64,000 bases of DNA from an uncultured bacterium (GCA_949284685.1 CASDWE010000002.1:596106-660105); one strand, 5' to 3'. Positions 10,135 through 61,423 are shown, counted from the first letter of the stretch. Translations and numbers: made by a program. Notes: generated by a model from the letters alone, not told the origin.

Positions 10135-10160
10135 AGCGGTGACATATCATCGCTTTTTTA
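10135..10160 (+). terminator. Rho-independent terminator
   Basis: agcggtga-cata-tcatcgct is followed by TTTTTT. The stem sequence is the same as the terminator at 6817. Confidence 0.5.
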
Positions 10161-10220
10161 GTTTTACTATATTGACAAATTAAAACAGTTAATACAGAAT
10201 AAATATAAGGAATTTAATCT

Positions 10221-10688: not shown

Positions 10689-10837
10689 TAAATTACTTTA
10701 AATTATAAATATGGCGTTTTTGCACTAATTTAAAAGAAATTTACGCAGTTTTTTGATTACTTAAAATTATTTTATAGTTATGTAAAGGCTTGTCGATAAA
10801 TATTTAAATTATATAATTATATATATTTGGAGGAATT

Positions 10838-11419: not shown

Positions 11420-11421
11420 TT

Positions 11422-38380: not shown

Positions 38381-40078
38381 ATGAAAAAGGCCTTAGGTGT
38401 TTTTACAATTTTAGAGGGAATATCGCTAGTAGTTTGGATTGTAATTCTTTTGTGTACTTTTGCATTTGCGGGTACTGGTACGGATTATTTGACATCGTTA
38501 GTTGATTTCTTTAGACCATTTGGTAATGTTTTTGCCAATTTAGGATCAATAGGCAATCCGAGTGTTTATGGTACTTATGGGTATGTCACACTTGTTTTGT
38601 TTGTAATTTTCTTAGTTTTAGTTTTATTATGGATTATCTTACTTGGTGTTAAGAAAAAACCAATTTATTTATCTTTCTTACCAATTGTTTTATTAGGTCT
38701 ATTTCCATTATTGTGCACTGTAGCAAACTTTGATGCATTCTTATCAATGTTTACTAATGGTATGACTCAAGAAACTATTGTTGGATTGGTAATATATTCT
38801 CTTTTATTTGCTTATGCTGTTTTAATAACTCTGTTGTTTGTAGTATTTTATATTTTGGGACTTGCCAATATTTTAAAACGTGTACCAACGAGCGAAACCA
38901 AAGAACTTCCAGTCGATGGAGATGCTGCAGTTGATGCTTCTTATCCTTATTCAACTGTTGAAGCACCCGCAATGTCTGTTGAAGAACCTACACCAGAACC
39001 TGCTCCTACATATGTTGAAGGAGTTGAACCAGAAGGCGAGCCTGCTCAACACGTTGATGAAACCAATGAACCTACACCAGAACCTGCTCCAACTCCTGCT
39101 CCGGAATCTGTTGGTATTAATGGAAATAATTTAGATGCACAGACTCTTGCACAAGCTATACGCGATGCAGTTCGTGATATAGTTAGAGATGAATTAGCAC
39201 GTGCTGAATTAAATAAACCGCATTCTGTTCCAACCAATTCTAATTCCACCATCACTGGTGCTACATTTGGTGGTCCTCTAGTGGTTCAATATTTTAATGG
39301 TGGTATAAATTCTGTTCCTGCACCAGAACCAAAACCTGTTGAACAGCCTGTTCAAAAAGAAGAGAAAAAATGTGAAGAGGAAGTTAAGGAAGAAAAAGTG
39401 GAAGAGGTTAAGGAAGAACCTGTAGTTGAAGAGCCAACACCAGAACCAACACCAGAACCTGAACCTATAGTTGAACCAGAACCAATTGTTGAAGAACCTG
39501 TTGTTGAACCAGAACCCGAACCCGTGCCTGATGAACCAACACCAGAACCTGTAGTTGAAGAGCCAATTGTTGAACCTGTAGTCGAACCAGAATCAACACC
39601 AGAACCAGTTGTTGTAGAGGAAAAACCACAAAAAGTTTATGAAAGAATATCTTTCATTGATCGTATGATTGATGCTGATAAAGATATGCAGGATAATTAC
39701 AATATTTTGAAAAATGAAATATTGTCATATGGTGTTAAATCTAGAGTTAGTAATTCTGGCGACACATTTAGATTACATAAGAAAACTTATGCTAAAATTA
39801 CAATTGCTGGCAAATCATTAAAATTATACTTTGCACTAGATCCAAAGGATTATGAAAATTCTACCATGCCAGTTCAAGATGCTGGTCATAAAGGAATTTA
39901 TGCTGAAATCCCATTAGTGTTCAAAGTTAGATCTGAATTATCTATGCGAAGATGTAAAGATTTAATTCAAACAGTTATGGAAAAAGATCACTTAGAACAA
40001 GGTGAAATACTTGATGTAAATTGGATTGAAGATTTAAAATCTATCGCCTTAGAAAAAGATAAAGAAGAGGACGATTAA
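38381..40078 (+). CDS. Membrane protein with a long Pro/Glu-rich (EPxPEP) repeat stalk and a C-terminal globular domain, hypothetical
   Basis: There is a GGAGG RBS. Five TM helices are followed by TPEPAP/EPVVEEP repeats (roughly nt 38980-39630) and a conserved-looking 140-aa C-terminus. Confidence 0.5.
   Translation: MKKALGVFTILEGISLVVWIVILLCTFAFAGTGTDYLTSLVDFFRPFGNVFANLGSIGNPSVYGTYGYVTLVLFVIFLVLVLLWIILLGVKKKPIYLSFLPIVLLGLFPLLCTVANFDAFLSMFTNGMTQETIVGLVIYSLLFAYAVLITLLFVVFYILGLANILKRVPTSETKELPVDGDAAVDASYPYSTVEAPAMSVEEPTPEPAPTYVEGVEPEGEPAQHVDETNEPTPEPAPTPAPESVGINGNNLDAQTLAQAIRDAVRDIVRDELARAELNKPHSVPTNSNSTITGATFGGPLVVQYFNGGINSVPAPEPKPVEQPVQKEEKKCEEEVKEEKVEEVKEEPVVEEPTPEPTPEPEPIVEPEPIVEEPVVEPEPEPVPDEPTPEPVVEEPIVEPVVEPESTPEPVVVEEKPQKVYERISFIDRMIDADKDMQDNYNILKNEILSYGVKSRVSNSGDTFRLHKKTYAKITIAGKSLKLYFALDPKDYENSTMPVQDAGHKGIYAEIPLVFKVRSELSMRRCKDLIQTVMEKDHLEQGEILDVNWIEDLKSIALEKDKEEDD
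39300..39630 (+). repeat. Coding Pro/Glu-rich tandem repeats (PEPTPEPEPIVEPEP...) inside the 38381 gene
   Basis: Reiterated gaaccagaaccaacaccagaacct-type codon blocks are visible. They generate spurious ORFs on other frames (38775-38972 and 39046-39255 on the minus strand, 38880-39134 on the plus strand). Confidence 0.55.
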
Positions 40079-41755: not shown

Positions 41756-41853
41756 ACAAATATTATCTAATATTAAAATATTTAATTAAAGGAAATAAAT
41801 TATATTTTTAGTCAAATTAGATATTTCCACCTATAAGTAATTAAGGAGGGAAT

Positions 41854-42171
41854 ATGTTAGACATCAAATATGCATCTTTAAATAATAAAGAAAAAATAAA
41901 ACTTATTGCCAAACAATACGGAACGAGTTATCACCGATATGCGAGCAATACTTCCACTTATTCAGACATATATTTTATAAATGTTTTAAATAAAGCATTT
42001 GATCAATTAGACGACAAAGGAAAAATGTATATTAATAACATTTATTTTTTGCAACAAAACGCCAAATGGTGGAAAAACATTTATCCAAAATCTACTTATT
42101 ATAGGTTGAAAAACAAATATTTAAATCAATTTATTAAAAATGTGGAGGAAATATATGACACCTATTGTTAA
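41854..42171 (+). CDS. Hypothetical protein, first gene of the pilus-like operon
   Basis: There is a GGAGGG RBS. The 105-aa product has no recognisable motif. Confidence 0.3.
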   Translation: MLDIKYASLNNKEKIKLIAKQYGTSYHRYASNTSTYSDIYFINVLNKAFDQLDDKGKMYINNIYFLQQNAKWWKNIYPKSTYYRLKNKYLNQFIKNVEEIYDTYC

Positions 42172-43159
42172 AATCGCTTCTTTGTTAGCAATCTCGTTTT
42201 CTAGTTTATTTTCGCCAATTCAAGAACAAACAATTTATGTAACAGTTGATAAATTCGGGCCATTTTATCGTAATCAAGATGTTAGAGTGAATATCAAATT
42301 AGAAAGTAAAAGTCGTTATGAAGATTTGATAGTTGATTTATATTACAATATTGATGCAAACGATGACTATTTTTTAGTTGCCAGCAGCGGTTATATTGAT
42401 ATAGAACCAAATATTGCAACTATCACCGATATTAAGGTTCCAACATATTTGTTCCAACATTTTAATCCGATTAATTTTGAAATTAGAGTAACAAGAGATG
42501 CAACATATCAATTTCTTACAACTGTTCCTTTTAGATTGTATGAAGGCAAAGAATATCAAATCGATATACAAACATTAAAAAACTCTGAATCGATTTATAA
42601 TCCACCAAGAACAACTATTAGTATATTAAATAATGAAGTTTTTTATAGAGACAGTGACCAATTAAGTTTTAAAAGATTTTCTGAAAGTTTTGTTGAAGAA
42701 TATTATCATAGACTAACTTTTGGAAATAAATTTTTCTTCAATTATTATTCCAAAGCCAACATTATATATGACGATATATTTTTGATATTTAATGATAAAG
42801 AAAACTTATTTCCTTATCTTGCTGATGATACTAGAACAGTCAAAATAAGATTAAAAGCTGTTCAAAGTGGCACAAATTATATTCACACATTGGCTTTAAA
42901 TGAAGAAACACTTTTTGTAGATCCTACAACTTTACAAATGTCGAGAACAAAAAGAAATAACTATGTGAAAACAAATTATTTTTACTTGCCAGTTAACGGA
43001 AAATCTCTTTTTGAAACATATGATTTAATAATATATTTTAAAGGTTTGGGTCAAGGTGGTTTCGATTATTATTATTTGACAAATTATATGGCATCAAAGT
43101 CAATTATTGGAAATTGTTCATCTTCACAATTTTGTATAGTAGGAGGTATATATGATTAA
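42155..43159 (+). CDS. Secreted protein in the pilus-like operon, hypothetical
   Basis: A GGAGG RBS lies 6 nt upstream of the ATG at 42155. It has a Sec-type signal peptide, MTPIVKIASLLAISFSSLFSPIQ. Confidence 0.4.
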   Translation: MTPIVKIASLLAISFSSLFSPIQEQTIYVTVDKFGPFYRNQDVRVNIKLESKSRYEDLIVDLYYNIDANDDYFLVASSGYIDIEPNIATITDIKVPTYLFQHFNPINFEIRVTRDATYQFLTTVPFRLYEGKEYQIDIQTLKNSESIYNPPRTTISILNNEVFYRDSDQLSFKRFSESFVEEYYHRLTFGNKFFFNYYSKANIIYDDIFLIFNDKENLFPYLADDTRTVKIRLKAVQSGTNYIHTLALNEETLFVDPTTLQMSRTKRNNYVKTNYFYLPVNGKSLFETYDLIIYFKGLGQGGFDYYYLTNYMASKSIIGNCSSSQFCIVGGIYD

Positions 43160-43553
43160 CGCCTTCATAGCAATGATTGTTTGTGTCATGTCTTTTCAAA
43201 TATTTACTACGACATATCAATTAAGCGGAATTAACAAGACTCTTATAAATATGCCTAAATCTATCATAGAAAATTCTATTCCATTAGAGGGTGAAGAAAA
43301 TAATTTTATTCCAACAATTGATAAAACGCTATTACAAGAAAATGCAAACGAATATTTTAAGAAAAATTTATCTAGATATACAAACGAATATAAATTGCAG
43401 TACTTATTTTATGATAAAGATACAAATCGACCATGCATTATTAAAAATTGCAGTGGTGTAAGAATTACTTTGACTTGCAAAATTTTACAAATTTTTAATT
43501 ATAGTCAAACAATGTATTACGAAATTATAAAAGGAGATTTATGGACAGCTTAA
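43152..43553 (+). CDS. Small protein with an N-terminal hydrophobic segment (possible pseudopilin/pilus accessory protein)
   Basis: There is a GGAGG RBS. The N-terminus is MINAFIAMIVCVMSFQIF. It overlaps its neighbours. Confidence 0.3.
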   Translation: MINAFIAMIVCVMSFQIFTTTYQLSGINKTLINMPKSIIENSIPLEGEENNFIPTIDKTLLQENANEYFKKNLSRYTNEYKLQYLFYDKDTNRPCIIKNCSGVRITLTCKILQIFNYSQTMYYEIIKGDLWTA

Positions 43554-44545
43554 AAGTATATGATTTTATTAAAAATTCTTTTTTAAAACCTTTAATATTA
43601 GATGAGGATGTAACAGATATTTCTTATAATGGGAAAGATATATATTATCAAAACAATATTTTTGGTCGGAAAAAATACGATTTAGAAATAAGTTTAAATG
43701 ATGTTTATGATTTTTTACGACAAATAGCAAATTTATGCGAACAATATTTTTCGATTGCACATCCTATTTTAGATATATCAATACGCAATATACGATTAAA
43801 TGCGACATATTTTTCAATCGCACGAGTCGACTATGAAAAATCATTATCATTTTCAATAAGAATCGCTAGAGACAACTTAAATATTGATAGCAAAACATTT
43901 ATGTCTGATATTTGCCGTCAATTCCTTGTTGATTTAGTTCAATCAAAGTCATCCATCATTATATGCGGGCAAACATCATCAGGAAAAACTCAATTACAAA
44001 AATATTTGATTCGGCACTTATTACCAAATACTAGGGCAATTATCATTGATAATGTTTTGGAATTAAATGACTTAACTCAATGCAATGAATTAGATATTAC
44101 ATGTTGGCAATATGATGATTTAAAAGACAATATGACACTTAAAGTACTAATAAAAAACGCTTTAAGAAATAATCCAGATTATCTTGTATTAGCGGAATCA
44201 CGTGGAGAAGAAATGTTTGATATTATTAACGCTTCTTTATCTGGATGTCCTATAATTACAACAATACATAGTCATGATATTAAATCAATAATAGATAGAA
44301 TGGTGTCTCTTTCTTTACTTTGTGATAAAAAAATTACAGCCGAGTACGTTAAAAACAATATCTATCAAAATATCCATTATTTTGTTTTTGTAAATGTTAT
44401 AACAACAAAAAATGAAATGATTGAAAGATTTGTAGAAAAAATAGCGTACTTATCTAATGATGGATCTTTACAAATTATTTATGAAAAAAATAAAAAAGAA
44501 AATGATTTGACAAGACATAGAAAAATGTTAGGAGAATTAAGATGA
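43541..44545 (+). CDS. Type II/IV secretion-system ATPase of the CpaF/TadA/VirB11 (T2SSE) family
   Basis: Walker A ICGQTSSGKTQL is present. Asp box/Walker B DYLVLAESRGEEMFD and His box PIITTIHSHD are present, in the same block order as CpaF. There is an AAGGAG RBS. Confidence 0.7.
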   Translation: MDSLKVYDFIKNSFLKPLILDEDVTDISYNGKDIYYQNNIFGRKKYDLEISLNDVYDFLRQIANLCEQYFSIAHPILDISIRNIRLNATYFSIARVDYEKSLSFSIRIARDNLNIDSKTFMSDICRQFLVDLVQSKSSIIICGQTSSGKTQLQKYLIRHLLPNTRAIIIDNVLELNDLTQCNELDITCWQYDDLKDNMTLKVLIKNALRNNPDYLVLAESRGEEMFDIINASLSGCPIITTIHSHDIKSIIDRMVSLSLLCDKKITAEYVKNNIYQNIHYFVFVNVITTKNEMIERFVEKIAYLSNDGSLQIIYEKNKKENDLTRHRKMLGELR

Positions 44546-45255
44546 AAAAAATAATACTAGTAGACATAACAATTGTTTTTGTTGTCGGATTATCTAGTTA
44601 CTTATGTACAGATAATTTGTATTTAATGTGTGGTGTCATATTTATATTTGCTTTGTATTTATTTATTGTTTTTAACAGGATGTATAAAAAACAACTATCA
44701 AATATAAACCGCTACCACGAATGCTTTAATTTTATGAACGATTACATTGTGTCATTAAACACTAATCAATCTCTTTTAGGTGCATTTGCCGCTATTCAAA
44801 ATAATTTTTCAAAAGAATTAGATATAGAAATTGAGGGAGTTAAAGACACTGATATTATTCAAAAAATTGAATATTTGCAGGGTTATTTTCCATTTCATGT
44901 ATATTTTTTATTTTGTCAAATTATCAAAATATACGATAAACAAGGTGGCAATATTTTAAACATGTCTTCTTATTTAATTAAACAGGCTAGAAGCGTTGAA
45001 GAATATATCGATACAACTGAAAAATATAGGTCACAAAAAATAATTGAAATAATAATATTATGGTCTTGTTGCCTTTTAATTTTAATTTTTATAAGATTTG
45101 GTCTAAATCAATTTTTTAGCACCATAAAAAACAATCTTATCTATGTCATTTTCGTCGGCGCTTTTTATCTTTTCCTTCTTTTATTTATTCATATGAGTGG
45201 GTTAGTATTATTCAAATTTGATGTGCGGGGGTTTGTTAAAAATGAAAAAAATTAA
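44542..45255 (+). CDS. TadB-like inner-membrane platform protein (single T2SSF-type domain), tentative
   Basis: The 237-aa protein has an N-terminal TM helix plus two C-terminal TM helices. It is translationally coupled to the ATPase by a 4-nt overlap. Confidence 0.45.
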   Translation: MKKIILVDITIVFVVGLSSYLCTDNLYLMCGVIFIFALYLFIVFNRMYKKQLSNINRYHECFNFMNDYIVSLNTNQSLLGAFAAIQNNFSKELDIEIEGVKDTDIIQKIEYLQGYFPFHVYFLFCQIIKIYDKQGGNILNMSSYLIKQARSVEEYIDTTEKYRSQKIIEIIILWSCCLLILIFIRFGLNQFFSTIKNNLIYVIFVGAFYLFLLLFIHMSGLVLFKFDVRGFVKNEKN

Positions 45256-45910
45256 AAATTATTTAGAATCATTAAACTTGTCTTTTAAGAAAGAAATTTT
45301 GCTATTTATCATTTGCAATTTATTGTGTATTGCCATTGTATTAGTGGTATCCATTATCTCTAAAAATTATTTATTTTTTATTGTCGGAATTTTGTTAAAT
45401 ATCGGAATAAATATTTCTTTAATAATGCGATATTCGTATATTAAAAGTAACATTATTAAAAATCATGAAAGCGAATTTGTTTACTTTATTCAATATTTAG
45501 AGATTTTTTTATCCAATAAATATAATGTTTATTCATCATTTTTAGCAGTCAAAGAATACATGAGTGATTGGATGCAAAATAGAATAGATGAGTTAATCAA
45601 CGATATAGATAAAGATAAAAGCATAAATCCATACATTAATTTTGCTAAAAATTTTAAGGCTCCTGTAGTTAGTAACGTTATGATGAATATTTATCAAATG
45701 GTAAACGAAGGAGAAGACGAGATGCGTTTGCAACAATTTGATCTATTATTTGTTAAATATTTTGAAAATTATCAAGAAATTCGAATTGACAAAAGAAAGA
45801 AAAATCTTGACAATTTATCAATTTATCCACTTATAGGTGCGGGGATTATAACAATTATTTTAATTTTAGGAGTTGTAATAATTATGGAGGATATGATTAA
45901 TGTCTTATAA
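45242..45910 (+). CDS. TadC-like inner-membrane platform protein, tentative
   Basis: A GGGGG RBS precedes the ATG at 45242. The track's 45218 start is a TTG. The TM topology is similar to the TadB-like gene. Confidence 0.45.
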   Translation: MKKIKNYLESLNLSFKKEILLFIICNLLCIAIVLVVSIISKNYLFFIVGILLNIGINISLIMRYSYIKSNIIKNHESEFVYFIQYLEIFLSNKYNVYSSFLAVKEYMSDWMQNRIDELINDIDKDKSINPYINFAKNFKAPVVSNVMMNIYQMVNEGEDEMRLQQFDLLFVKYFENYQEIRIDKRKKNLDNLSIYPLIGAGIITIILILGVVIIMEDMINVL

Positions 45911-46241
45911 GATATCTTTAATTTTATCAATGGTATTTGTAGCTATGTTTTTCTTGCTTGGTATTGATTTTATTGGTCTTCAATTTGCATATACTGAATT
46001 AGATCAAAAAGCTATTACTATTAGTTATTTAATAGCACAAAACGGCAATCTTTTACCAAGTTTTATTAACAGAATAGAAATTACATATGATGTTGAATTT
46101 GTTTGTAACACAAATTGTACGCCTGCTTTTGGCGATGTTGTTGAGTTTACATTAATTGATGAGTTTAATCCGATAGTGATAAGCAATGACACTATCGATG
46201 TCTCCATTAAACGAACATCAATTATTGGATATTATGATTAA
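45900..46241 (+). CDS. TadE-like pseudopilin-type protein, tentative
   Basis: The 113-aa protein has one N-terminal TM helix (ISLILSMVFVAMFFLLGIDFIG) followed by a beta-rich domain. There is a GGAGG RBS. Confidence 0.3.
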   Translation: MSYKISLILSMVFVAMFFLLGIDFIGLQFAYTELDQKAITISYLIAQNGNLLPSFINRIEITYDVEFVCNTNCTPAFGDVVEFTLIDEFNPIVISNDTIDVSIKRTSIIGYYD

Positions 46242-46256
46242 AGAAGGAGGGATGCT

Positions 46257-46439
46257 ATGTCAGAAATAAAAGGACAACTTTTGGGTATATTGCTTGTCCT
46301 TGCAATTTTTGGAACAGTAGCCGGAACATTAACCACTGTATTTTCATCTTTAGCAGAAGATGTTGAAAGTGAAGTTTCTGGTCTAAATAGTTCACTAAAA
46401 AATTCTAACGTCTTAGAAAAAGAATTATTACATTATTAA
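46257..46439 (+). CDS. Flp/pilin-like small hydrophobic protein, tentative
   Basis: The 60-aa product reads MSEIKGQLLGILLVLAIFGTVAGTL. A Gly lies before the hydrophobic helix. A canonical Flp GxxxxEY or ComGC FTLIE motif is absent. There is a strong AAGGAGGG RBS. Confidence 0.3.
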   Translation: MSEIKGQLLGILLVLAIFGTVAGTLTTVFSSLAEDVESEVSGLNSSLKNSNVLEKELLHY

Positions 46440-46445
46440 AACTTT

Positions 46446-46480
46446 AGGAGGATTAATCACCAAGTCCTCCTTTATTTTTT
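46446..46480 (+). terminator. Rho-independent terminator closing the pilus-like operon
   Basis: aggagga-ttaatcaccaag-tcctcct is followed by TTTATTTTTT. Confidence 0.55.
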
Positions 46481-46543
46481 CTAGACTATTTTATTTTTTT
46501 TAATATAATTGAATTGATTTAAATAAAAAGAGGGAATTTATTT

Positions 46544-46848: not shown

Positions 46849-46924
46849 GCCTACTTAGCTCAGTCGGTAGAGCTATCGGCTGTTAACCGATCGGTCGTGG
46901 GTTCGAGTCCCTCAGTAGGCGCCA
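46849..46924 (+). tRNA. tRNA-Asn, anticodon GUU
   Basis: The acceptor stem gcctact/agtaggc pairs perfectly. The anticodon arm is atcgg-ctGTTaa-ccgat and the T-loop is ttcgagt, with an encoded CCA. Confidence 0.75.
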
Positions 46925-46929
46925 ATTTT

Positions 46930-47006
46930 GGCCCGTTGGAGAAGTGGCTTAACTCATATGCCTTTCACGCATACACTCATGGGTTCGAATCCCGTACGGG
47001 TCACCA
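46930..47006 (+). tRNA. tRNA-Glu, anticodon UUC
   Basis: The acceptor stem ggcccgt/acgggtc has one G-U pair. The anticodon arm is tatgc-ctTTCac-gcata and the T-loop is ttcgaat, with an encoded CCA. Confidence 0.75.
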
Positions 47007-47274: not shown

Positions 47275-48237
47275 ATGACTCAAGACGAAAAATTGATATA
47301 TTTAAATGAAATTGTTAAAAATAATTTTACAAGTGAATATAAGGGCCCTTTAATTTTGTATAAATATAGACCATTTGATGAGTATACTTTTGAAATGCTA
47401 GATAATGATTATATTTTCTTGTGTCCAGCCGAAAAAGAAGATGATGAAACTGAGTGCTTAACTACAACGAATCTTAATGAAATGTTAGATCCTAAGACTG
47501 GTAATTTATCAAAAAAATACTTAAATAAAATCGTTAGTTTGATAAAACCTAGTTCAACCGATAAGAATTATGAAATTGCTAAAGATAAAGTTTTTGAAAT
47601 TGCTGATAAAGAAGGTACTAATCCAATAATTTTTAATAAAGATTTTGCTATAGAACTTAAAAAAATGGCACCAGAAGGTACAGATGTTGGTCCAATAATA
47701 AAGGCAATTGAAAACATACCAGAAATGCTTAATAAGCCGGAAATGAGCAAAACTCTTGAACCAGCCTTCAAATTAGCAATTGATGCAAGAAAGAAAATTG
47801 GTATATGTTCATTAGCTGAAACAAATAATATAGATTATATGTGGAAGAATTACGCTCAAGAATCTTCTGGCTATTGTATTGAATATGACTTAAATGATTA
47901 TGAACTAGTAAAGAATATTTTACCTGTTATTTATCAAGATGAAAGAGAAACTAATATAATAGTTCAGTTTACAGGCACTATGCTAGGCTTACTTATATGT
48001 GCTATCAGCAAAGGATTAATACCTGCAGATGCGTCACACTTTATTAGATTATTCTTAACAAAATATAAGAAGTGGGAATATCAAAATGAGTGGAGATATA
48101 TAGGTAGTGCTAATGACAAGCCTAAGGCTCCAAAAGTAAAAACAATTTACTTAGGAAAGAATGTTACTGCTGAGAACGAAATAGAAATGAGAAAATATGC
48201 AGCTTTAAAGAGCATACCAGTTATAAAACTTAATTAG
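47275..48237 (+). CDS. DUF2971-like protein (defence-island associated), tentative
   Basis: The N-terminal region LILYKYRPFDEYTFEMLDNDYIFLCPAEKEDDETE resembles the ...lyKYrs...N-DpfE signature of the DUF2971 family. Confidence 0.45.
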   Translation: MTQDEKLIYLNEIVKNNFTSEYKGPLILYKYRPFDEYTFEMLDNDYIFLCPAEKEDDETECLTTTNLNEMLDPKTGNLSKKYLNKIVSLIKPSSTDKNYEIAKDKVFEIADKEGTNPIIFNKDFAIELKKMAPEGTDVGPIIKAIENIPEMLNKPEMSKTLEPAFKLAIDARKKIGICSLAETNNIDYMWKNYAQESSGYCIEYDLNDYELVKNILPVIYQDERETNIIVQFTGTMLGLLICAISKGLIPADASHFIRLFLTKYKKWEYQNEWRYIGSANDKPKAPKVKTIYLGKNVTAENEIEMRKYAALKSIPVIKLN

Positions 48238-48249
48238 GGAGGAAAGGCT

Positions 48250-49410
48250 ATGAAAATCCATAATATTCATATACATTTTGATTTTGGAAACTGTCTTGTG
48301 ATAAGAAACGATACTCCATTGCTTGATTGTTATCAAATCCAAAAAGATAATGCTAATGCAGCATTAATTGATAAAATTGAAAAAGAAACAAGTGGTAAGT
48401 TTGTATATTTCTTAATTGATATAAATCAAGCAAAGAACGTAAAAAGAAATATTTATATTGGAAAAACAAACAGCTTGATGAATCGAATTATCAGTCATAG
48501 AAAGAATAAAGACTGGTGGAATACGATTATCGTATTTGGTAACAAGTATTTATCTTCAGATGACATAGATGCTATTGAAAAGCTTCTTATTGAGGAATAT
48601 GAAAATTCTGATCTTTATACAATCAAAAATGATGTGGGATCTAATGCTAAATTAAGTGAGCAACATAATGATTATAGAGAATACATTGTTGATATTATGG
48701 ATTTTCTATCTTATGGAGTTACTAAAACTGTCATTACTCCTGAGACTAAAACTAATCAAGTGGTTATTCAAACAGCTGCTCAACCATTATCTAATTCTAG
48801 TAGACAAGAATCATTTAAATTTTCAATGTTAGATATAAAACCTGGTGAGATACTTTCATTTATTAACAATGATAAAGTAACTTGCGAAGTTGTTGATGAT
48901 AAGAATGTTAAATATAAAGGGAAGTTATATTCTTTAAGTTCTTTGGCAAAAGAATTATTGAATACTAATGTTCCTAAAAGAGGAACTGATTATTTTTTAT
49001 ATAAAGGTAAGACTTTAAGAGTTTTAAGAGATGAAAAGAATGGAATACAAGTTTCTGATGTTGAAAAAACTAATAATTGGATTATTTCTTGTAATAAAGA
49101 GTTCTATGATTTAGATAATGCATTAAACGAAATGAAAATTATTGATTTTAAACAAAATGCTAATGTTGAAGCTGGTAGTAAAGTATATATTTATTCATCA
49201 GGTGAAGATAAAAAATTAGTTTATATAACTGAAGCTGTTGTAGTTAATAAACCAGAACAGACTATAAATGACGATAAATATATAAAGAATAAGAGTGGTT
49301 ATGCTGATTCTAATAGATACATGGAACTTAAGCTAGTAAAAAAACTCGAATCTGATAAATTATCATTATCTGATTTAAAGAAAAATGGACTTAGAGGTAA
49401 CTTGCAATGA
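48250..49410 (+). CDS. GIY-YIG nuclease-family protein with a C-terminal extension (DUF4357-like), tentative
   Basis: FVYFLIDIN...NIYIGKTNSLMNRIISHRKN fits the GIY...YIG...R...H spacing. There is a GGGAGG RBS. Confidence 0.5.
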   Translation: MKIHNIHIHFDFGNCLVIRNDTPLLDCYQIQKDNANAALIDKIEKETSGKFVYFLIDINQAKNVKRNIYIGKTNSLMNRIISHRKNKDWWNTIIVFGNKYLSSDDIDAIEKLLIEEYENSDLYTIKNDVGSNAKLSEQHNDYREYIVDIMDFLSYGVTKTVITPETKTNQVVIQTAAQPLSNSSRQESFKFSMLDIKPGEILSFINNDKVTCEVVDDKNVKYKGKLYSLSSLAKELLNTNVPKRGTDYFLYKGKTLRVLRDEKNGIQVSDVEKTNNWIISCNKEFYDLDNALNEMKIIDFKQNANVEAGSKVYIYSSGEDKKLVYITEAVVVNKPEQTINDDKYIKNKSGYADSNRYMELKLVKKLESDKLSLSDLKKNGLRGNLQ

Positions 49411-49481
49411 CCTTGTAGAGTCCCTGTTGAATTACAAGCATATATAGATTTTATTATTAAGTAGAAAGGTGGTGAGACGAT

Positions 49482-51149
49482 ATGTCTTTATTTAAAGAAA
49501 AACCGATATTATTTGAAACAATGTACTTCAAAGGTGGAGATTATGCAGGTGCTTTCTTTTTAAAGAATGTCGTTGACAATCTTTCTTATATTGAAACAAC
49601 TTTATCTTCGTTTGATTACTCAATTAATTCTATTGAAGATTTGTTTGATTTTTTGTGGTTGTCAGACTTTATAGAGATGGCAAATGAATTAGATATATTT
49701 AAAATCGATGAGGATATTAAAACAAGAATTCGTAATCTTGCTGATTCTATATATACTAATCCAAAAGAGTTTATAAAGTTTATTAATAATGATCCTGAAT
49801 TGGTTTTTACAAAACAAAATATTAATAAACCAATGTATTGGCATCTTTACTTACCGAGAATGTTAAATCTATGCTTTAACAAATATTCAACATCATTGAG
49901 ACAAAATGTTTTTGACTTCATAGAAGAAAATCTATATTTGAATGTATTATCATCATTTGATGAGTACCAAAAGTATTATCTAAAACATAAAGAATCATTT
50001 AAAAAGTTATTTAATTCTTTGAAAGAAACCAGACCATTTGATGACCAGATTTATAAAAACTTTTTATTAAAAAAGAATGATATTATAGATCTCGAATTCT
50101 TAAAAGAACAAGCCACATTTATATGTGAAAGAGCATATGATGAAATAATAAAAATGGGGTTAGATTCAGAAAATAAAGAAATTATGCAAGCAGTTAATTT
50201 TTTTGATGAATATTATGAACTTGCTCGTTTTTATAAACTTAAATGTGCAAATAAATATAGTGCCTATAAACCAAAAATAGAAAAAGTGTTAAATGATTAC
50301 ATTGTTAAGCATGGTCAACATATGGATTTTGGTCCTATAGATTTAAAACCAGCGCTAGATATTTTTGAAAAATCAGATGATGTATATAGATTTTTTCAAC
50401 TAACACATAGCATGAAAGATGATAAATACTATAACAATTTAAATAATGTATTTGAAACTACTCCGCCTGATGGTTTATCAGAATTATTTCCACCGAGAGG
50501 TAAAGTTGGTAGTGAGAATTATCCTATCTATAGACAGGATCATATTGATTTATATCTTTCGATTAATTCGAGTATTTTAAATATGATAATAGTTCATCCA
50601 AAGTTATCTGTTGATTTTTCGAATTATATCGGTGCAATCTGCTCTCATGTTCAAACTAACTATTTTGATGATCAAATCAATATTTTCAAAGAAATCGGTG
50701 GAAGTTATGAGATGATTAGTAATCTTTATATGCTTAGAACAAAGAAGCAGAGTGACTCTTTATTGTATAAAGCATTATGTAACGGATGCTGTGTAAATTT
50801 ATGTGGAACCATTGAAAAGATACTAAGAAATATAATAATTAAAGAAGAATCAGACAATGTTTACATTGATGAAAGTAAACTCACATTAGGTCAAATTTTT
50901 AAAAGAACGCATAATTTATCATCAATTTCAAATGGTATTAAATACTATTTAAAATACATATTAATGACTGATGAAGAGACTTCACCAATAAAAGAAAAAA
51001 GACCAGGTAGGGATATAAGAAATTGGCAGATGCATAACGCAAATGATAAGTATGATAAAACAAGTTATCAATTATGCGTTGAACTATTCTATTTAACTAT
51101 ATCTCTTGTAGTTGATTTAGTTGTAGTATCGTTAAAATACGACGAGTAG
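49482..51149 (+). CDS. Hypothetical protein with a C-terminal HEPN-like Rx4H motif
   Basis: The 555-aa product has a C-terminal ...RPGRDIRNWQMHNANDKYD... (R-x4-H) motif, similar to the motif in the 58195 gene. Confidence 0.4.
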   Translation: MSLFKEKPILFETMYFKGGDYAGAFFLKNVVDNLSYIETTLSSFDYSINSIEDLFDFLWLSDFIEMANELDIFKIDEDIKTRIRNLADSIYTNPKEFIKFINNDPELVFTKQNINKPMYWHLYLPRMLNLCFNKYSTSLRQNVFDFIEENLYLNVLSSFDEYQKYYLKHKESFKKLFNSLKETRPFDDQIYKNFLLKKNDIIDLEFLKEQATFICERAYDEIIKMGLDSENKEIMQAVNFFDEYYELARFYKLKCANKYSAYKPKIEKVLNDYIVKHGQHMDFGPIDLKPALDIFEKSDDVYRFFQLTHSMKDDKYYNNLNNVFETTPPDGLSELFPPRGKVGSENYPIYRQDHIDLYLSINSSILNMIIVHPKLSVDFSNYIGAICSHVQTNYFDDQINIFKEIGGSYEMISNLYMLRTKKQSDSLLYKALCNGCCVNLCGTIEKILRNIIIKEESDNVYIDESKLTLGQIFKRTHNLSSISNGIKYYLKYILMTDEETSPIKEKRPGRDIRNWQMHNANDKYDKTSYQLCVELFYLTISLVVDLVVVSLKYDE

Positions 51150-51184
51150 TCTTGCATTTGTTTTTTATATTAATGAGGTAGAAT

Positions 51185-51901
51185 ATGAAATCATTGAATG
51201 AAATAAAGTTATCTATAATAGATGAATTATCTAAGAACAAAGCGTATGATTTACCAAATATATGTTCTGCACTAGGGTTGGAAGATGGTACTGAAAACGA
51301 AGCCTATAATAGTAAAAGAATGTATGTGAGTAAACGAATTAATCATCTTTCTAAAGTTGAAATAAATAAATTACTATATGCAATGAAAGAAAATTTTGAT
51401 ATTGACCTATTACCAGAAGAAAACTGTAACTTTGATAATCTAAAAAAAGTCTCTGAAGAAATAAATAGTGACTATATAAATGTACAAATAGAATTAATGA
51501 AAAAATTTCAAAAAGAAAATCCAACAGAGGCTATTGGTAAAGCGAAGGAACTTTTAGAAACTATTTGTAAAACCATTTTAAAAAGATTAAATATAGAATT
51601 CGATGAATCATGTGAAATCCAAGCCTTAGCAAAAGCAACTTATAAAGCCTTGAAATTATCTCCAGATGAAGTAAAGGATGGCCCTTTATCTCAAACAATA
51701 AAACAAATATTAGGTGGATTGAATAGTATTTCAAGTGGTTTGGCTAGTTTGAGAAACTCTTATGGAAGTGGACATGGCAAGGACGAAAGTTATAAGGGGC
51801 TTCCAGAAAGATATTCAAAGTTAGCAATTGGAAGTGTATCTACACTAGTGGTGTTTCTATGGGAAACAATGCTATATCAAATTGATAAAAATCAAGAGTA
51901 A
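51185..51901 (+). CDS. Abi_C-like abortive-infection protein (HEPN superfamily), tentative
   Basis: The C-terminal ...SSGLASLRNSYGSGHGKD... fits the Abi_C pattern R-N-x5-H-G. There is a GAGG RBS. Confidence 0.5.
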   Translation: MKSLNEIKLSIIDELSKNKAYDLPNICSALGLEDGTENEAYNSKRMYVSKRINHLSKVEINKLLYAMKENFDIDLLPEENCNFDNLKKVSEEINSDYINVQIELMKKFQKENPTEAIGKAKELLETICKTILKRLNIEFDESCEIQALAKATYKALKLSPDEVKDGPLSQTIKQILGGLNSISSGLASLRNSYGSGHGKDESYKGLPERYSKLAIGSVSTLVVFLWETMLYQIDKNQE

Positions 51902-52132
51902 ATAATTGTAGTGATTTTATTCTTAAACTTGCATTTAGTAGAAACTAATGGAATAAGTATGTTAAAACCTGTCGTTTGGGTGAAAAAAATAACATTAGCA
52001 AATTTAAGGTCAAATAACTGTAGAGTTATTGTAGGTTCAGTAAATTGATAAAATAACTCTTTTGTTATATAATTATACCGATAATCTAAAGTACCAGAAA
52101 GTTGAGGAAGGGCTCAAAGGAGGTACTTGTGT

Positions 52133-52363
52133 ATGGATTATCAAAAAGCCATATTAGATAAAGAAGCAACAAGTATTAAACTTAGGTCCCTTAGAATCAA
52201 AGCTAATCTAACACATGATAGACTAGCTGCATTACTTCAACTAAACACACCTCGTGTGATTTATGATTGGGAATGTGCAAAGAAGATGCCTAATGTTGAA
52301 AACTTGTATAATCTGGCTCTAATATTTAATATGAAAATGGAGGATTTACTTGTGACCAAGTAG
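52133..52363 (+). CDS. XRE-family helix-turn-helix transcriptional regulator
   Basis: The HTH_3 core LRSLRIKANLTHDRLAALLQLNTPRVIYDWECAKKMPNVENLYNLALIF is present. An AAGGAGG RBS lies 9 nt upstream of the ATG at 52133. The track's 52127 start is a TTG. Confidence 0.7.
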   Translation: MDYQKAILDKEATSIKLRSLRIKANLTHDRLAALLQLNTPRVIYDWECAKKMPNVENLYNLALIFNMKMEDLLVTK

Positions 52364-52672
52364 ATCCTTCTTTTTTATTTTTGAACTATAGTACATTTTT
52401 TATTCCTGGATTTATTGTTAAAATAATAACAGTATCTATGAATATGTCCGTTGATATTGAAATAAATTTCAATAATGTGATATAATTATATAAAGATACA
52501 TATGCAGGTTCTGAAACAGTGGAGTAAGAACTTTACCTATATGAAATGTTGGAACAAATCCTATGGTTGGGATATACCATATGAGGAGTAAACCAATAGT
52601 TAAAAGCTAATTTTCAAGAGTGGTATTGCGTGTCTAAACAAAATAACATAATAAGAGGAAGAATGTTATTGA

Positions 52673-52708
52673 AGTGGCGATAGGCTAATACCTACCGTCA
52701 CTTTTTTG
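52673..52708 (+). terminator. Intrinsic terminator (attenuator-like) at the end of a ~370-nt leader, 7 nt upstream of the operon RBS
   Basis: agtggcgatagg-ctaata-cctaccgtcact forms a 12-bp stem with one G-U pair and one mismatch, followed by TTTTTTG. The AAGGAGG RBS and the ATG at 52731 follow. Confidence 0.5.
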
Positions 52709-52730
52709 TATATAAGGAGGTGTCAATAAC

Positions 52731-53660
52731 ATGAAAAAGAAAAGCAAAGTCATCGGTAAAGACTATGATAAATTAGAAAAAGATAATAGATTCGATCAGA
52801 TTGATTATTATGGTCTTATTGCTAAAGATGGCAGAATTAAAATTGACACAAAGAGATATAAAAAATTCTTTACTATTCCTGATACTAAAATAGAAAGAAG
52901 ACAATCTGTTTATTACCTTCCAACAAAGCAACATAGATCCGATTATAAATGTAATTGGTTCAGAGATTTGTTAGCAGGTTATAAACAATTGTGGTTTAGA
53001 GAATATAAAAGTTTTATTGATAGCATTAAGACACCAAAGCAAGTAGAAGATAGTGCGAGATTAGATTATTTAGCTGATGGTGTTCTTGAGTACGATGAAG
53101 CTAATGCAAAAGCATTTATTGCAGGTATGAAAAGAAGTGCTGACTATAAAGTGATTATTAAATCTTTATATGCTCAATTCTTCCATCAAATGATGTCTAG
53201 CATTGATGCTTTATGTTTAAAGATGTTAACTGCCTGTGGTTATAAAGAAGAAGATTATACTAAGAAACAATTTGATATTTATATTCAAGGTTTGCAAGGT
53301 AATAATGCATTATCATTCAGACAATACGATAATTATCAATTATATGATAGAGCATTTACTGTTTGGAACTTCCTAAAGCATAACTCTCTTAGATCATATA
53401 AGATCTTGAAGCAATGGTATCCTAAAATGGTATGGGATCCAGAAGAGAAATATCAAAATGGTGAATCTGCACTTACTGTTGTTAAATTAGATGAGAAATT
53501 CATCTTAGATTGTATTGATAACTTACATTTATTCTTTGATGAATTATGTGCGAGAGCTTTTGGTGAAAATGCTGATGATGCACAATGGGATTATGATGAT
53601 TACTTCTTAGACGTCGTACAAGATGAAATAGATGTTATTGTTAATCCACTAGGTATATAG
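52731..53660 (+). CDS. Hypothetical protein, first gene of the helicase operon
   Basis: The 309-aa product has a strong AAGGAGG RBS and no recognisable catalytic motif. Confidence 0.45.
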   Translation: MKKKSKVIGKDYDKLEKDNRFDQIDYYGLIAKDGRIKIDTKRYKKFFTIPDTKIERRQSVYYLPTKQHRSDYKCNWFRDLLAGYKQLWFREYKSFIDSIKTPKQVEDSARLDYLADGVLEYDEANAKAFIAGMKRSADYKVIIKSLYAQFFHQMMSSIDALCLKMLTACGYKEEDYTKKQFDIYIQGLQGNNALSFRQYDNYQLYDRAFTVWNFLKHNSLRSYKILKQWYPKMVWDPEEKYQNGESALTVVKLDEKFILDCIDNLHLFFDELCARAFGENADDAQWDYDDYFLDVVQDEIDVIVNPLGI

Positions 53661-53672
53661 GAGGGCGGAAGA

Positions 53673-60327: not shown

Positions 60328-61412
60328 GCCAGCAAGTAACTGTTGATTACCAAGGTGTATCTATTCAAGTGCAAGCTAAATGTGATACAGCTGTTCATTC
60401 GCTATGTCAAATAGATAAAGTGCTTGATAGAATACATAAAACAGCAGATAAGCTAGAAACATCAAAAGTAAAAGAATATGAAGCTTATTTGCAAAAATCC
60501 AAGGAAACAATCAAAGAAAAGATTGAAGCGTTTAAGAAGACTCTAGAAAAATATAAAGAAGCTAGGGCTTATTCGGTTAATAATCATCAACCAGATTATC
60601 AACAATTCATTAATTTTACTAATAAAGTTCAAGCTGAATCACAAGAATTAATTAGAACAGTAAATGAGTTAACTGGTTCTAAACTTGCAGTAATTGATCA
60701 GATGATTGATGAAGGATTATTAAATGCTGGACAAGAAACTACTCAAGCTATGCTTGATAAATTACATGGTGTTATTTCGATTTCAGATGATGTTTTATTA
60801 AAGATTAATAGTATAGAAGATGTTTCATTAAGAGAATTAGCTTATAGAGAAATTCTTAAAAATGATAAACTTAGTTTTGATGAAGCAATTACTAAAGCAC
60901 AAGAAGAATATGATGTTCTCTTAGGTAAACAAACAAAGAAAGTTATTCAAGAATATAAAGAAGAACTTACTGCTAAGGGTATTACTGTTGAAGAATTAGA
61001 TAAAGCTAAATCTATTGATGAAGCTAATGCTATTGCTAATGAAGCAATTACTGATGAAACAGTAAGAAAAGAAACTTTAAAAGTTATTATTAAAGCAATC
61101 AAAGATAGAGGATTCATTGTTGATACAAAGAAGAATCTTAAAATCGATAAAGAAAGAAATATTGTTAAGCTTGTTGCATTAAAGGCATCTGGACAAATGG
61201 CTGAATTTGAAATTCAACTTAATGGTAAGTTTATGTACCACTTTGATGAATATGAAGGTCATGCATGTAAGAAAGATATAGAACCATTCTTAGAAGATTT
61301 AAAGAATATCTACGATATCAATATTCTTCATGAAGAAGTAACGTGGGAAAATCCAGATAAGATTCAAACTCAAAAATATCAATACATAAACAAAAATAAG
61401 GGTACTAATTAG
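60324..61412 (+). CDS. Hypothetical coiled-coil protein (362 aa), possible partner of the downstream ClpB-like ATPase
   Basis: There is a GGAGG RBS and a 4-nt overlap with the upstream gene. It has no catalytic motif. Confidence 0.4.
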   Translation: MSQQVTVDYQGVSIQVQAKCDTAVHSLCQIDKVLDRIHKTADKLETSKVKEYEAYLQKSKETIKEKIEAFKKTLEKYKEARAYSVNNHQPDYQQFINFTNKVQAESQELIRTVNELTGSKLAVIDQMIDEGLLNAGQETTQAMLDKLHGVISISDDVLLKINSIEDVSLRELAYREILKNDKLSFDEAITKAQEEYDVLLGKQTKKVIQEYKEELTAKGITVEELDKAKSIDEANAIANEAITDETVRKETLKVIIKAIKDRGFIVDTKKNLKIDKERNIVKLVALKASGQMAEFEIQLNGKFMYHFDEYEGHACKKDIEPFLEDLKNIYDINILHEEVTWENPDKIQTQKYQYINKNKGTN

Positions 61413-61423
61413 GAGGTAAACAT

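Follow-up and report, generated by a model that had tools for sequence, protein, structure and literature searches.

A conserved operon of uncultured gut Bacilli predicted to encode a minimal, Tad-like type IV pilus

Gene content and organization of the locus

The locus consists of eight co-directional, mostly overlapping genes on the plus strand (41854-46439; g1 to g8 in Table 1), which were identified by ORF calling on the window, that is, the entire 64-kb stretch of DNA analyzed here, while gene prediction carried out independently on the source contig (ENA ERZ16268261 scaffold_0, 722 kb) recovered the same eight. The preliminary description of this DNA counted nine genes, all of them overlapping, although its own list likewise sums to eight. 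The overlaps hold for g1 to g7 (17-32 nt for g1/g2, 8 nt for g2/g3, 13 nt for g3/g4, 4 nt for g4/g5, 14 nt for g5/g6 and 11 nt for g6/g7), whereas g7 and g8 are separated by a 15-nt gap. The g6 product reaches 230 aa only if translation starts at an upstream TTG.

A candidate promoter is located in the 98-nt gap between g1 and the divergently oriented gmk; it was missed by the consensus scan because the final base of the -10 hexamer is G. At the other end of the operon, the reported 60-aa hydrophobic peptide, its strong ribosome-binding site and the terminator are all present (the terminator scan of the region found 2, against 1.1 expected).

Table 1. Genes and putative expression signals of the locus, in window coordinates
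Feature	Position	Strand	Length	Description
Candidate promoter	41809..41837	+		sigma-70-type (TAGTCA, 17 nt, TATAAG); read from the sequence, candidate only
g1	41854..42171	+	105 aa	
g2	42155..43159	+	334 aa	339 aa with the upstream ATG at 42140
g3	43152..43553	+	133 aa	
g4	43541..44545	+	334 aa	T2SSE-superfamily ATPase
g5	44542..45255	+	237 aa	Predicted platform protein, 4 TM, TadB/TadC-like, first of the pair
g6	45242..45910	+	222 aa	Predicted platform protein, 3 TM, T2SSF (GspF/PilC) cytoplasmic domain
g7	45900..46241	+	113 aa	Putative minor pilin, TadE/TadF-like
Shine-Dalgarno sequence	46243..46251	+		GAAGGAGGG, 5 nt 5' of the g8 start codon; read from the sequence
g8	46257..46439	+	60 aa	Putative major pilin
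Intrinsic terminator	46446..46481	+		9-bp stem with 4 GC pairs, then TTTATTTTTT; hairpin and T-run at 46446-46471

Conservation and genomic context

The order of the eight genes is retained in approximately 80 species-level MAGs or representatives, and the block is preceded by gmk in 59 of 65 loci and followed by acpP in 48 of 57. Given this conservation, the gene block is far beyond a chance arrangement. Evidence that the ATPase groups with conjugative VirB11 and that the genes belong to an ICE had been named at the outset as what would overturn a pilus assignment. The operon is not part of an ICE because the genes reappear in the same order, between gmk and acpP, in the approximately 80 species-level MAGs; furthermore, no VirB4, VirD4 or relaxase is encoded within 8-10 kb on each side, in the window and in related loci (L002-L005), and no VirB6/8 or cell-wall hydrolase within 8 kb on each side in the window and related loci. 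In a neighbor-joining tree, the ATPases of RF39-type genomes are monophyletic, which indicates vertical descent. Altogether, this is a vertically inherited, chromosomal operon of uncultured gut Bacilli with small genomes (RF39-type MAGs).

The secretion ATPase

The g4 protein matches the Pfam T2SSE family (PF00437) with 67 bits, against a cutoff of 24.9, and its catalytic motifs are intact, namely the Walker A motif GQTSSGKT, the NPDYLVLAESRGEE box and the TTIHSH box; the Walker A, Asp/Walker B and His boxes are invariant across 17 homologues. The best NCBIfam matches are to VirB11 (112 bits; cutoff 250), TadA-like (82 bits for the TadA-family model; cutoff 373) and FlaI models, all far below the respective cutoffs, and the ComGA model scores 63 bits with a cutoff of 300. 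When compared with PDB sequences, the g4 profile scores afGspE at 94, HP0525 at 84, FlaI at 79 and CpaF at 69 bits, and in tblastn searches VirB11/TrbB sequences (57-68 bits) score below CpaF (76-81 bits). The neighbor-joining tree, which contained no archaeal sequence, places g4 as the sister of ATPases from the pLS20, pXO2 and Listeria plasmids with 100% bootstrap support; two CpaF sequences fall apart from this clade of g4 and Bacillota plasmids, with the deep nodes supported by only 14-55%, and the VirB11 of Agrobacterium and Campylobacter and the TrbB of Neisseria lie outside the clade of RF39 and Bacillota plasmids.

The assignment of g4 to a CpaF/TadA/VirB11-type ATPase thus stands at the level of the T2SSE superfamily and its motifs, but not at the level of the CpaF clade. 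Membership in the TadA/CpaF clade was rejected on the basis of the NCBIfam score and the tree placement, and membership in the VirB11/TrbB clade was rejected given the score below the NCBIfam cutoff and the position of the true VirB11/TrbB sequences outside the clade. From its sequence, g4 is assigned to the VirB11/archaeal/CpaF wing of the superfamily and is predicted to be a hexameric secretion ATPase, the putative assembly motor of the system.

Platform proteins

The two membrane proteins of about 235 aa reported to follow the ATPase are present (237 and 222 aa). In g5, two TM helices at either end flank a cytoplasmic middle part, and the predicted structure of g6 is a single T2SSF domain with the GspF/PilC fold. 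The g5 and g6 families are remotely similar to each other (hhalign E 4.4e-5), and Pfam T2SSF matches 2 of 63 g5 orthologues. The T2SSF assignment rests on the predicted structure together with weak HMM matches because the g5 and g6 profiles show no significant similarity to proteobacterial TadB, TadC or HofC (hhalign) and a g6 profile finds only 433 relatives among 1.84 billion representatives; the platform and pilin families are almost unseen by Pfam. Of the split TadB/TadC-like platform described initially, the pair of remote paralogues and the modelled fold of g6 stand, but a sequence match to TadB or TadC does not. We conclude that the platform is split over two single-domain proteins, with the T2SSF fold predicted for g6 alone. 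Tad systems and the Epd systems of archaea are characterized by such a split platform of single-domain proteins (PMC6668835).

Pilin-like proteins and their leaders

The g8 protein starts with the leader MSEIKG, followed by QLLG, about 20 hydrophobic residues and a variable tail with HY at its end. The N-terminal sequence of g8, MSE[IVL]K[GA]|[QT]LL, hardly varies among more than 50 species, while the ATPases share just 40-60% identity: among 54 distinct orthologues, M1, E3, K5 and L9 are invariant, G6 is found in 53 and Q7 in 45. Position +5 is occupied by Ile and position +6 by Leu or Ile; Glu5 is absent. No Flp or other pilin family of Pfam matches g8, and Flp (PF04964) is absent from the 54 orthologues even at E <= 1. 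The preliminary description was correct that neither the Flp GxxxxEY nor the ComGC FTLIE motif occurs in this protein, which nevertheless carries a motif of its own, the nearly invariant class-III-type leader. Cleavage is predicted before Q7. In size and position, g8 matches a Flp-class pilin.

A comparable leader of 6 residues, M[SGA]YK[LI][GSA], precedes the hydrophobic helix of g7 (MSYKxG|LILS), so that both leaders have the same length and end in G/A/S. Both proteins show the layout, highly conserved, of a class III signal (a polar leader with a G/A end and about 20 hydrophobic residues), without Glu5 or a match to a pilin HMM. Pfam TadF (PF16964) matches 11 of 65 g7 orthologues, the best at 2.4e-4, under the curated threshold. 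A single-TM protein of 113 aa is present as described, and hhalign comparisons of g7 with three proteobacterial TadE sequences gave no significant match; g7 is a putative TadE/TadF-like minor pilin with apparent remote homology to the TadF family. As already noticed, the operon lacks a prepilin peptidase; none was detected among the polytopic ORFs of the 64-kb window either, nor within 8 kb on each side of 80 related loci.

Relationship to plasmid conjugation operons

The closest annotated relatives of g4 are the 'putative VirB11' proteins of the pLS20-family, pXO2/pAW63 and Listeria plasmids (tblastn 115-134 bits), which are scored at 212 and 162 bits by the RF39 ATPase profile. The relationship extends to the adjacent genes: plasmid genes 38, 39 and 40 are homologous to g5, g6 and g7 in the same order (hhalign E 9e-5, 3e-6 and 2e-7; 8.7e-5 for g5 against pLS20 gene 38, and 1.7e-7 with a probability of 94% for g7 against gene 40 of pLS20/pXO2). 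Judging by these comparisons, the homology between the locus and conjugation operons of the pLS20/pXO2 type covers genes 37-40 of the latter. Plasmid genes 36-41 encode, in the same order as in the locus, a bitopic protein of about 130 aa, the ATPase, two membrane proteins of about 240-270 aa, a bitopic protein of about 120 aa and hydrophobic peptide(s) of 47-50 aa, and an exported protein is likewise encoded upstream. The plasmid blocks differ in that they are mobile and form part of a T4SS operon that also encodes VirD4 and VirB4, and their ATPases carry an N-terminal extension of 70-120 aa. The KG|Q leader is missing from their small peptides, which show no detectable homology to g8, and the exported protein encoded upstream, a thioester adhesin, is unrelated to g2.

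Given that g4 groups with ATPases of conjugation operons and that the genes are not on an ICE, one half of the counter-evidence named in the preliminary description is observed and the other is not. This grouping invites the reading of the locus as a remnant or domesticated Gram-positive conjugative T4SS, with g4 as the VirB11 equivalent and the small membrane proteins as channel or mating-pair parts. Both the fully supported ATPase clade and the collinearity with plasmid genes that lie a few genes upstream of VirD4 agree with such an origin. Nevertheless, we consider it highly unlikely, given the absence of the T4SS and mobilization genes listed above within 8 kb on either side, the fixed housekeeping position between gmk and acpP in most genomes, the monophyly of the RF39 ATPases, the low tblastn rank of true VirB11/TrbB relative to CpaF and the predicted GspF/PilC fold of g6, a fold of type IV filament machines rather than of T4SS. 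Conversely, the plasmid blocks appear to be filament modules of the same kind, although their genes are listed as being of unknown function and Gram-positive conjugation is said to involve no pili (PMC8557374, PMC11730352). The only close relatives of the operon are thus unannotated gene blocks inside plasmid conjugation operons that are considered pilus-less.

Upstream genes

The g1 protein is cytoplasmic and matches NCBIfam NF045770 (MG284/MPN403 family) with 58.6 bits (cutoff 37.3); this model matches 33 of 36 g1 orthologues, the ArpU regulator family matches 6 of 36, and a profile comparison gives a weak match to region 4 of FliA. Across loci, g1 retains the first place in the operon, and it is a putative ArpU/sigma-region-4-like transcriptional regulator of the operon. 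The bitopic g3 protein, present in 79 of 86 loci, has a hydrophobic helix from residue 1 and a Cys pair in its ectodomain. It has no family match and resembles plasmid gene 36 weakly (E 0.01-0.2); g3 could be an accessory or minor-pilin-like protein, the positional equivalent of pLS20 gene 36.

The g2 protein has a hydrophobic N-terminus with a signal-like segment and a conserved C-terminal motif, G-x-C-x2-S-x-[FY]-C-[IV]-x-G-G. Identity among its orthologues is 14-32%, C321, C327 and P279 being invariant; there is no match in Pfam, NCBIfam or PDB, and the AF2 model is unusable (pLDDT 31.6). It appears to be a fast-evolving exported protein, a candidate adhesin or filament-associated protein. 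The constant co-transcription of an upstream gene for an exported protein, g2 in RF39 and the thioester adhesin in pLS20 and the Listeria plasmid, raises the question of whether the machine exports or displays g2 in the manner of a pseudopilus, by means of a short piston or stalk that would push it across or onto the envelope as in type II secretion. The lack of a retraction ATPase is compatible with this scheme, as is the analogy with display of the Tie adhesin in pLS20, which is reported not to be sortase-anchored and whose display route is unknown (PMC8092201). Still, there is no homology between g2 and the plasmid adhesins, and g8, being Flp-like in size and highly conserved, fits a polymerizing major subunit, so we regard an export device as distinctly unlikely.

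Predicted mechanism and function

Taken together, the locus very probably builds a thin type-IV-filament pilus of a minimal, Tad-like kind (probability of roughly 0.7). Leader cleavage, filament formation, the roles of g1, g2 and g3 and the biological function are inferred as follows. The small MG284/ArpU-like DNA-binding protein g1 would probably switch the operon on. The prepilin g8 and the minor pilin g7 would insert into the membrane, where a prepilin peptidase encoded elsewhere would remove their six-residue leaders after Gly6. The g4 hexamer would dock on a heterodimeric platform of g5 and g6, with one T2SSF-type domain each, and spend ATP to lift mature pilins from the bilayer into a thin helical fibre; g7, and possibly g3, would prime the fibre, and exported g2 might be carried or displayed.

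The most likely function is adhesion or cell contact, with the pilus attaching to surfaces of the host or to other cells. In monoderms, type IV filaments are mostly competence pili, and DNA uptake is a live alternative: a competence pseudopilus replacing ComG could feed DNA or nucleotides to an auxotrophic cell with a reduced genome. The small genome (722-kb scaffold) suggests a scavenging lifestyle, the universal conservation of the operon in the lineage would befit a core function, and there is a precedent in Micrococcus luteus, where Flp/Tad-type pili are reported to mediate transformation (PMC4322843). A competence role nonetheless appears unlikely given the ComGA score of the ATPase, the split platform in place of the two-domain ComGB and the lack of a ComGC-type motif in g8; in addition, no comEA, comEC, comF or dprA-type gene was recognized among the scanned window ORFs, and none lies beside the operon in relatives.

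Comparison with known type IV filament systems

The ComG system of Bacilli shares with the locus a monoderm host, a compact operon that combines ATPase and platform genes with several pilin genes, the small ones last, and, as predicted here for the locus, a peptidase encoded elsewhere. It differs in its PilB-type ATPase ComGA, the single two-domain platform protein ComGB and pilins with G|FTLxE, and a ComG assignment was accordingly rejected (ComGA score far below the cutoff, split platform, no FTLxE).

The archaeal Epd (EppA-dependent) pili of Methanococcus resemble the putative pilus in the split platform and the very short major pilin, and the g4 profile does as well against archaeal secretion ATPases (afGspE, FlaI) as against any from bacteria. 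The Epd leader is short and has a Gly end and Gln at +1, as in g8 (PMC3875500). In contrast, Epd pilins have retained Glu5 as well as the DUF361 motif, and the Epd locus encodes the peptidase EppA and a FlaH-like second ATPase.

With respect to the Tad/Flp systems (tad of Aggregatibacter, cpa of Caulobacter), the original reading holds for a type-IV-filament machine with Tad-style architecture, but not for the Flp motif, TadZ, TadV or the CpaF clade. The locus lacks the Flp motif and a Pfam Flp match, as well as TadZ, TadV, CpaB/RcpC and TadG, with neither a TadZ-type ParA-like P-loop protein nor a peptidase among the eight genes or in relatives; g4, placed outside the CpaF clade, is shorter by about 100 aa, and the platform proteins, which have no detectable sequence likeness to TadB/TadC, by about 90 aa. 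What the two have in common is an ATPase from the non-PilB wing, a split platform, a pilin (putative in g8) of Flp size (about 54 aa when mature), a minor pilin to which g7 would correspond as a TadE/TadF-like protein, and a single ATPase with no dedicated retraction motor.

Operon organization

Eight open reading frames (g1-g8), rather than the nine of the preliminary description, were counted on the forward strand of the window (see the table), and the same eight are present in the gene calls of the source record (ENA ERZ16268261 scaffold_0, a 722-kb MAG scaffold). Neighboring genes overlap by 4-32 nt, as had been described, except that g7 and g8 are set 15 nt apart. The strong ribosome-binding site and the terminator attributed to the pilin gene were both located, the former as GAAGGAGGG 5' of g8, the latter as a 9-bp hairpin followed by a T-run. 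The operon is flanked on one side by the divergently transcribed guanylate kinase gene (gmk) and on the other by acpP, beyond which lie two tRNA genes and then a variable island; the GC content is about 25-29% across the whole region, with no compositional break. A chance run of open reading frames is ruled out by the retention of the operon in about 80 species.

The variable island, which contains defence-like genes, encodes DUF2971 and Abi_C proteins, a 1509-aa SF1 helicase (AAA_11/AAA_12), a DUF4145 protein, an AAA_2 ATPase and a radical-SAM protein. Related loci carry different genes at this position (PvuRts1I/SRA, AAA_14-DUF4143 and Fic in L004; purB/purA in L002). On the gmk side of the operon, a membrane protein begins with four TM helices and has an extended low-complexity middle part rich in Pro, Glu, Thr and Val; it has no Pfam match, and varies from 509 to 785 aa among syntenic relatives.

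Features of the operon region and of the related plasmid records, with the matches of operon products to plasmid proteins
Feature	Record	Coordinates	Strand	Length (aa)	Description	Plasmid counterpart and match
Operon g1-g8	window	41854-46439	+
g1	window		+	105	MG284/MPN403-family protein
g2	window		+	334/339	exported protein
g3	window		+	133	bitopic protein	gene 36; E ~0.01-0.2 only
g4	window		+	334	ATPase	gene 37; 212 and 162 bits (RF39 family HMM/profile)
g5	window		+	237	platform protein	gene 38; hhalign E 8.7e-5
g6	window		+	222 (230 from upstream TTG)	platform protein	gene 39; hhalign E 2.7e-6, 88% probability
g7	window		+	113	TadE/TadF-like minor pilin	gene 40; hhalign E 1.7e-7, 94% probability
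g8	window		+	60	putative major pilin	small peptides; no match
Terminator	window	46446-46481			hairpin and T-run
tRNA genes	window	46849-47006			tRNA-Asn, tRNA-Glu
Variable island	window	47275-63767			defence-like genes
Abi_C gene	window	51185-51901			in variable island
Low-complexity protein	window	38381-40078		565	membrane protein
Polytopic ORF	window	16585-17457		290	~9 TM helices
Polytopic ORF	window	25832-26854		340	~5 TM helices
Plasmid block	L087 (pLS20 family)	6383-10440			genes annotated hypothetical
Plasmid block	L088 (pXO2)	6152-10273			genes annotated hypothetical
Plasmid block	L091 (Listeria plasmid)	6405-10443			genes annotated hypothetical
Tad-like cluster	L090 (pXO1)	4980-12277			more canonical Tad-like genes

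Distribution and inheritance

Relatives were sought by pattern matching and tblastn in a genome set with a single representative of each GTDB species, with an ATPase alignment as the query, which yielded 343 loci. The best 80 of these 343 all come from MAGs of gut, rumen or faecal origin that are labelled as uncultured Bacilli, Bacillales or 'Erysipelotrichaceae' or belong to the candidate genera Ca. Enteromonas, Alloenteromonas, Fiminaster and Onthovivens. We take the carriers to be members of the RF39 order; Ca. Onthovivens is placed by NCBI in Bacilli incertae sedis. Bacilli of the RF39 type are common in the gut, uncultured, and small in genome size (about 0.7 Mb).

When the individual genes were searched by BLAST with the window proteins in 86 loci, g4 was recovered in all 86, g5 in 84, g6 in 82, g7 in 81, g3 in 79, g8 in 74, g2 in 69 and g1 in 44; the gene order is always identical, and the absences correspond to short contigs or very divergent copies. 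Among loci that are informative on this point, gmk is the immediate upstream neighbor in 59 of 65 and acpP the immediate downstream neighbor in 48 of 57, and the RF39 ATPases are monophyletic in a neighbor-joining tree. Neither the flanks of the window operon nor the related loci encode VirB4, VirD4, a relaxase or a hydrolase close to the operon. The conserved gmk/acpP synteny, together with this lack of nearby transfer genes, rules out an origin of the locus in an ICE or plasmid; it is a core operon that is vertically inherited.

The ATPase and the platform proteins

The g4 protein belongs to the T2SSE superfamily (67 bits in Pfam), with the Walker A, Asp/Walker B and His boxes all intact, and falls below the threshold of every curated NCBIfam model (VirB11, 112 bits against a cutoff of 250; TadA-like, 82 against 373; FlaI, 79 against 550; ComGA, 63 against 300). 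When the g4-family profile was compared with PDB sequences, archaeal GspE scored highest (94 bits), followed by the VirB11 protein HP0525 (84), FlaI (79) and CpaF (69), with PilB, PilT and GspE at no more than 41 bits. Given this ranking and the subthreshold NCBIfam scores, profile comparison places g4 within the VirB11/archaeal/Tad wing of the superfamily, outside every named family of that wing.

Both g5 and g6 are predicted to contain two N-terminal TM helices, a cytoplasmic segment of about 110 aa and one or two C-terminal TM helices. The lack of T2SSF domains in these proteins had been proposed as an observation that would speak against a pilus operon. Pfam T2SSF is not significant for g5 and g6 of the window; among orthologues it is the most common Pfam match of g6 (7 of 59, best 2.3e-4) and is found in 2 of 63 g5 proteins, and the two families align with each other (hhalign E 4.4e-5). 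The objection therefore does not apply to g6; for g5 the answer is inferential. The family stands very much alone in sequence: of 1.84 billion representatives, the g6 profile retrieved no more than 433 at E <= 1e-3. In hhalign comparisons with small alignments of TadB, TadC and TadE from proteobacteria, of E. coli HofC and of the platform protein of pXO1, g5, g6, g7 and g3 gave nothing significant, and the g5, g6 and g8 profiles produced only noise against PDB sequences. Tad and archaeal Epd-like systems are described as being distinguished by a platform made of two single-domain proteins (PMC6668835). A repetitive 3397-aa protein (P0290) matches positions 141-180 of the g6 profile in 34 separate stretches (227 bits).

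Pilins and the prepilin peptidase

The g8 orthologues are 45-73 aa long and, among 54 distinct sequences, M1, E3, K5 and L9 are invariant, G6 and L8 are each present in 53, and Q7 in 45 (T or S in the others). The leader is followed by about 20 hydrophobic residues and a variable tail, in which HY is often the C-terminal pair. This conservation is far above that of the ATPase (40-60% identical), as might be expected for the recognition site of a processing enzyme and a polymerization helix. As previously noted, g8 lacks the Flp motif, including Glu5 and Tyr6, and no pilin HMM matches it. The leader resembles that of EppA-dependent archaeal pilins, which is likewise reported to be short and to end in Gly with Gln at +1 (PMC3875500). 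In g7, a leader of the same length (M[SGA]YK[LI][GSA], with G at position 6 in 50 of 65 sequences, S in 11 and A in 2) precedes a conserved G-x-D and an LD motif, and 11 of 65 orthologues match Pfam TadF (best 2.4e-4).

The reported absence of a prepilin peptidase from the operon extends to the whole window: no A24 peptidase was detected among all open reading frames with at least two predicted TM helices. Two polytopic products listed in the table have no Pfam match and no prepilin-peptidase-like GxGD motif.

Genes upstream of the ATPase

Apart from g4, only g1 has an above-threshold family match. MG284/MPN403, an uncharacterized family considered mycoplasma-specific that has clear members here, is matched by 33 of 36 g1 orthologues, and 6 of 36 have a further match to ArpU, a family that regulates late genes in phages; against PDB sequences, the g1 profile aligns weakly with the start of sigma-28 (FliA) region 4, the remaining hits being noise. 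On the basis of the ArpU and sigma-28 alignments, g1 appears to be a small sigma-region-4-like transcription factor, which suggests the same for the mycoplasma proteins. The g2 protein has a signal-like N-terminus, evolves fast (14-32% identity among orthologues) and retains a C-terminal Cys-x5-Cys-[IV]-x-G-G motif; a word-indexed protein search gave two matches, the family being too divergent, and an AlphaFold model from three sequences (pLDDT 31.6) provided no usable structure. The helix of g3 begins at Met1, with no leader, and no relatives of this protein were recognizable; neither g3 nor g2 showed any relation to g7.

Related gene blocks on conjugative plasmids

In a tblastn search of 72,556 plasmids, g4 best matched pLS20-family plasmids of Bacillus (125-134 bits), a Listeria plasmid (126) and pXO2 (115), followed by pXO1 (100), proteobacterial CpaF (76-81) and true VirB11/TrbB (56-68). 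The plasmid gene order is that of the operon: a bitopic protein of ~126-132 aa, the ATPase, two membrane proteins of ~245-270 aa, a bitopic protein of ~114-120 aa and hydrophobic peptides of 47-56 aa. Both pLS20 and the Listeria plasmid encode a thioester adhesin upstream of the block and VirD4 a few genes downstream. The block is partly homologous to the operon (see the table) and looks like the same filament module. Pfam detected no T2SSF or Tad domain in plasmid proteins 36 and 38-41, only weak matches to DUF4320 (gene 40) and DUF5411 (gene 36). In published work, pLS20 gene 37 is listed as a 'putative VirB11', no function is given for genes 36 and 38-41, Gram-positive conjugative elements are said to form no pili, and the pLS20 adhesin Tie has no sortase anchoring (PMC8557374, PMC8092201, PMC11730352).

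A neighbor-joining tree confined to bacterial ATPases (312 columns, 200 bootstraps) joins the RF39 and pLS20/pXO2/Listeria proteins at 100%, and pXO1 attaches to them at 74%; VirB11, TrbB and CpaF lie outside this group, the deep nodes being without resolution. Thus, half of an outcome named beforehand as contradicting a pilus operon was observed: the ATPase does group with those of conjugation operons, but the genes are not on a mobile element. A domesticated remnant of a conjugation system, to which this grouping might point, is unlikely for a vertically inherited core operon.

Several further observations concern mobile elements. In pLS20, two identical 47-aa peptide genes are arranged in tandem. 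A second, more canonical Tad-like cluster is present on pXO1; besides CpaB, its products are an AAA ATPase where TadZ would be expected, an ATPase of the CpaF/VirB11 family, a membrane protein of 310 aa, two peptides of ~67 aa and WxL/DUF916 surface proteins. Two 'Listeria phage' records of ~21 kb (OR848116.1, OR846771.1) encode an ATPase that shares 28.6% identity with g4 across 90% of its length, as much as the Listeria plasmid copy does; accordingly, these records may derive from a plasmid or an ICE and not from phages.

Proposed function and comparison with known systems

The best-supported reading of the operon is a minimal Tad-like type IV filament. In such a machine, g4 would be the motor and g5 and g6 the platform; g8 would be the major pilin, and g7, perhaps with g3, would prime the fibre; as an exported protein, g2 is a candidate for a partner or adhesin, and g1 is a likely regulator. 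The prepilin peptidase would be encoded elsewhere in the genome, as in the comG system of Bacilli, where the peptidase gene comC is likewise separate. Both filament formation and leader cleavage are predicted properties, with Gln7, possibly modified, as the expected N-terminus of mature g8. Adhesion or cell-cell contact is the most likely role, in view of the relationship to mating-related modules and of a lifestyle that is host-associated and goes with a reduced genome. A DNA-uptake pseudopilus is possible, with Flp pili performing this function in Micrococcus (PMC4322843); another rival reading is a short piston for display or secretion of g2. Under the Tad-like filament reading, a machine kept at one chromosomal site in nearly every species is probably central to attachment to host or partner cells, and the operon products offer a concrete target for enrichment, imaging and antibodies.

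More broadly, and with somewhat less than even odds, the RF39 operon and plasmid genes 36-41 (pLS20, pXO2/pAW63, Listeria) would form an unrecognized Bacillota clade of type IV filament machines, too diverged for the standard T2SSF, Flp and TadE models; a major Gram-positive conjugation class would then make a pilus or pseudopilus, on which Tie, itself unanchored, may be displayed, and the vertically inherited chromosomal version would be a core surface organelle of a whole uncultured gut order. The kinship with pLS20/pXO2 genes 37-40 translates into a testable hypothesis on mating-pair formation in systems held to encode no pilus, and pLS20 genetics in Bacillus subtilis already exist. Searches on MG284/MPN403, RF39 pili or competence, and a pLS20 pilus or Tad system found no prior description in the literature covered, outside of which lie most subscription journals. 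HMM-based detectors now in use miss this branch of the superfamily. In architecture, the operon represents a known kind of machine; in sequence, it is a distinct branch beyond the standard models. This branch is conserved throughout a whole order of uncultured bacteria and has links to genes that lack annotation in Gram-positive plasmids, well studied as these are.
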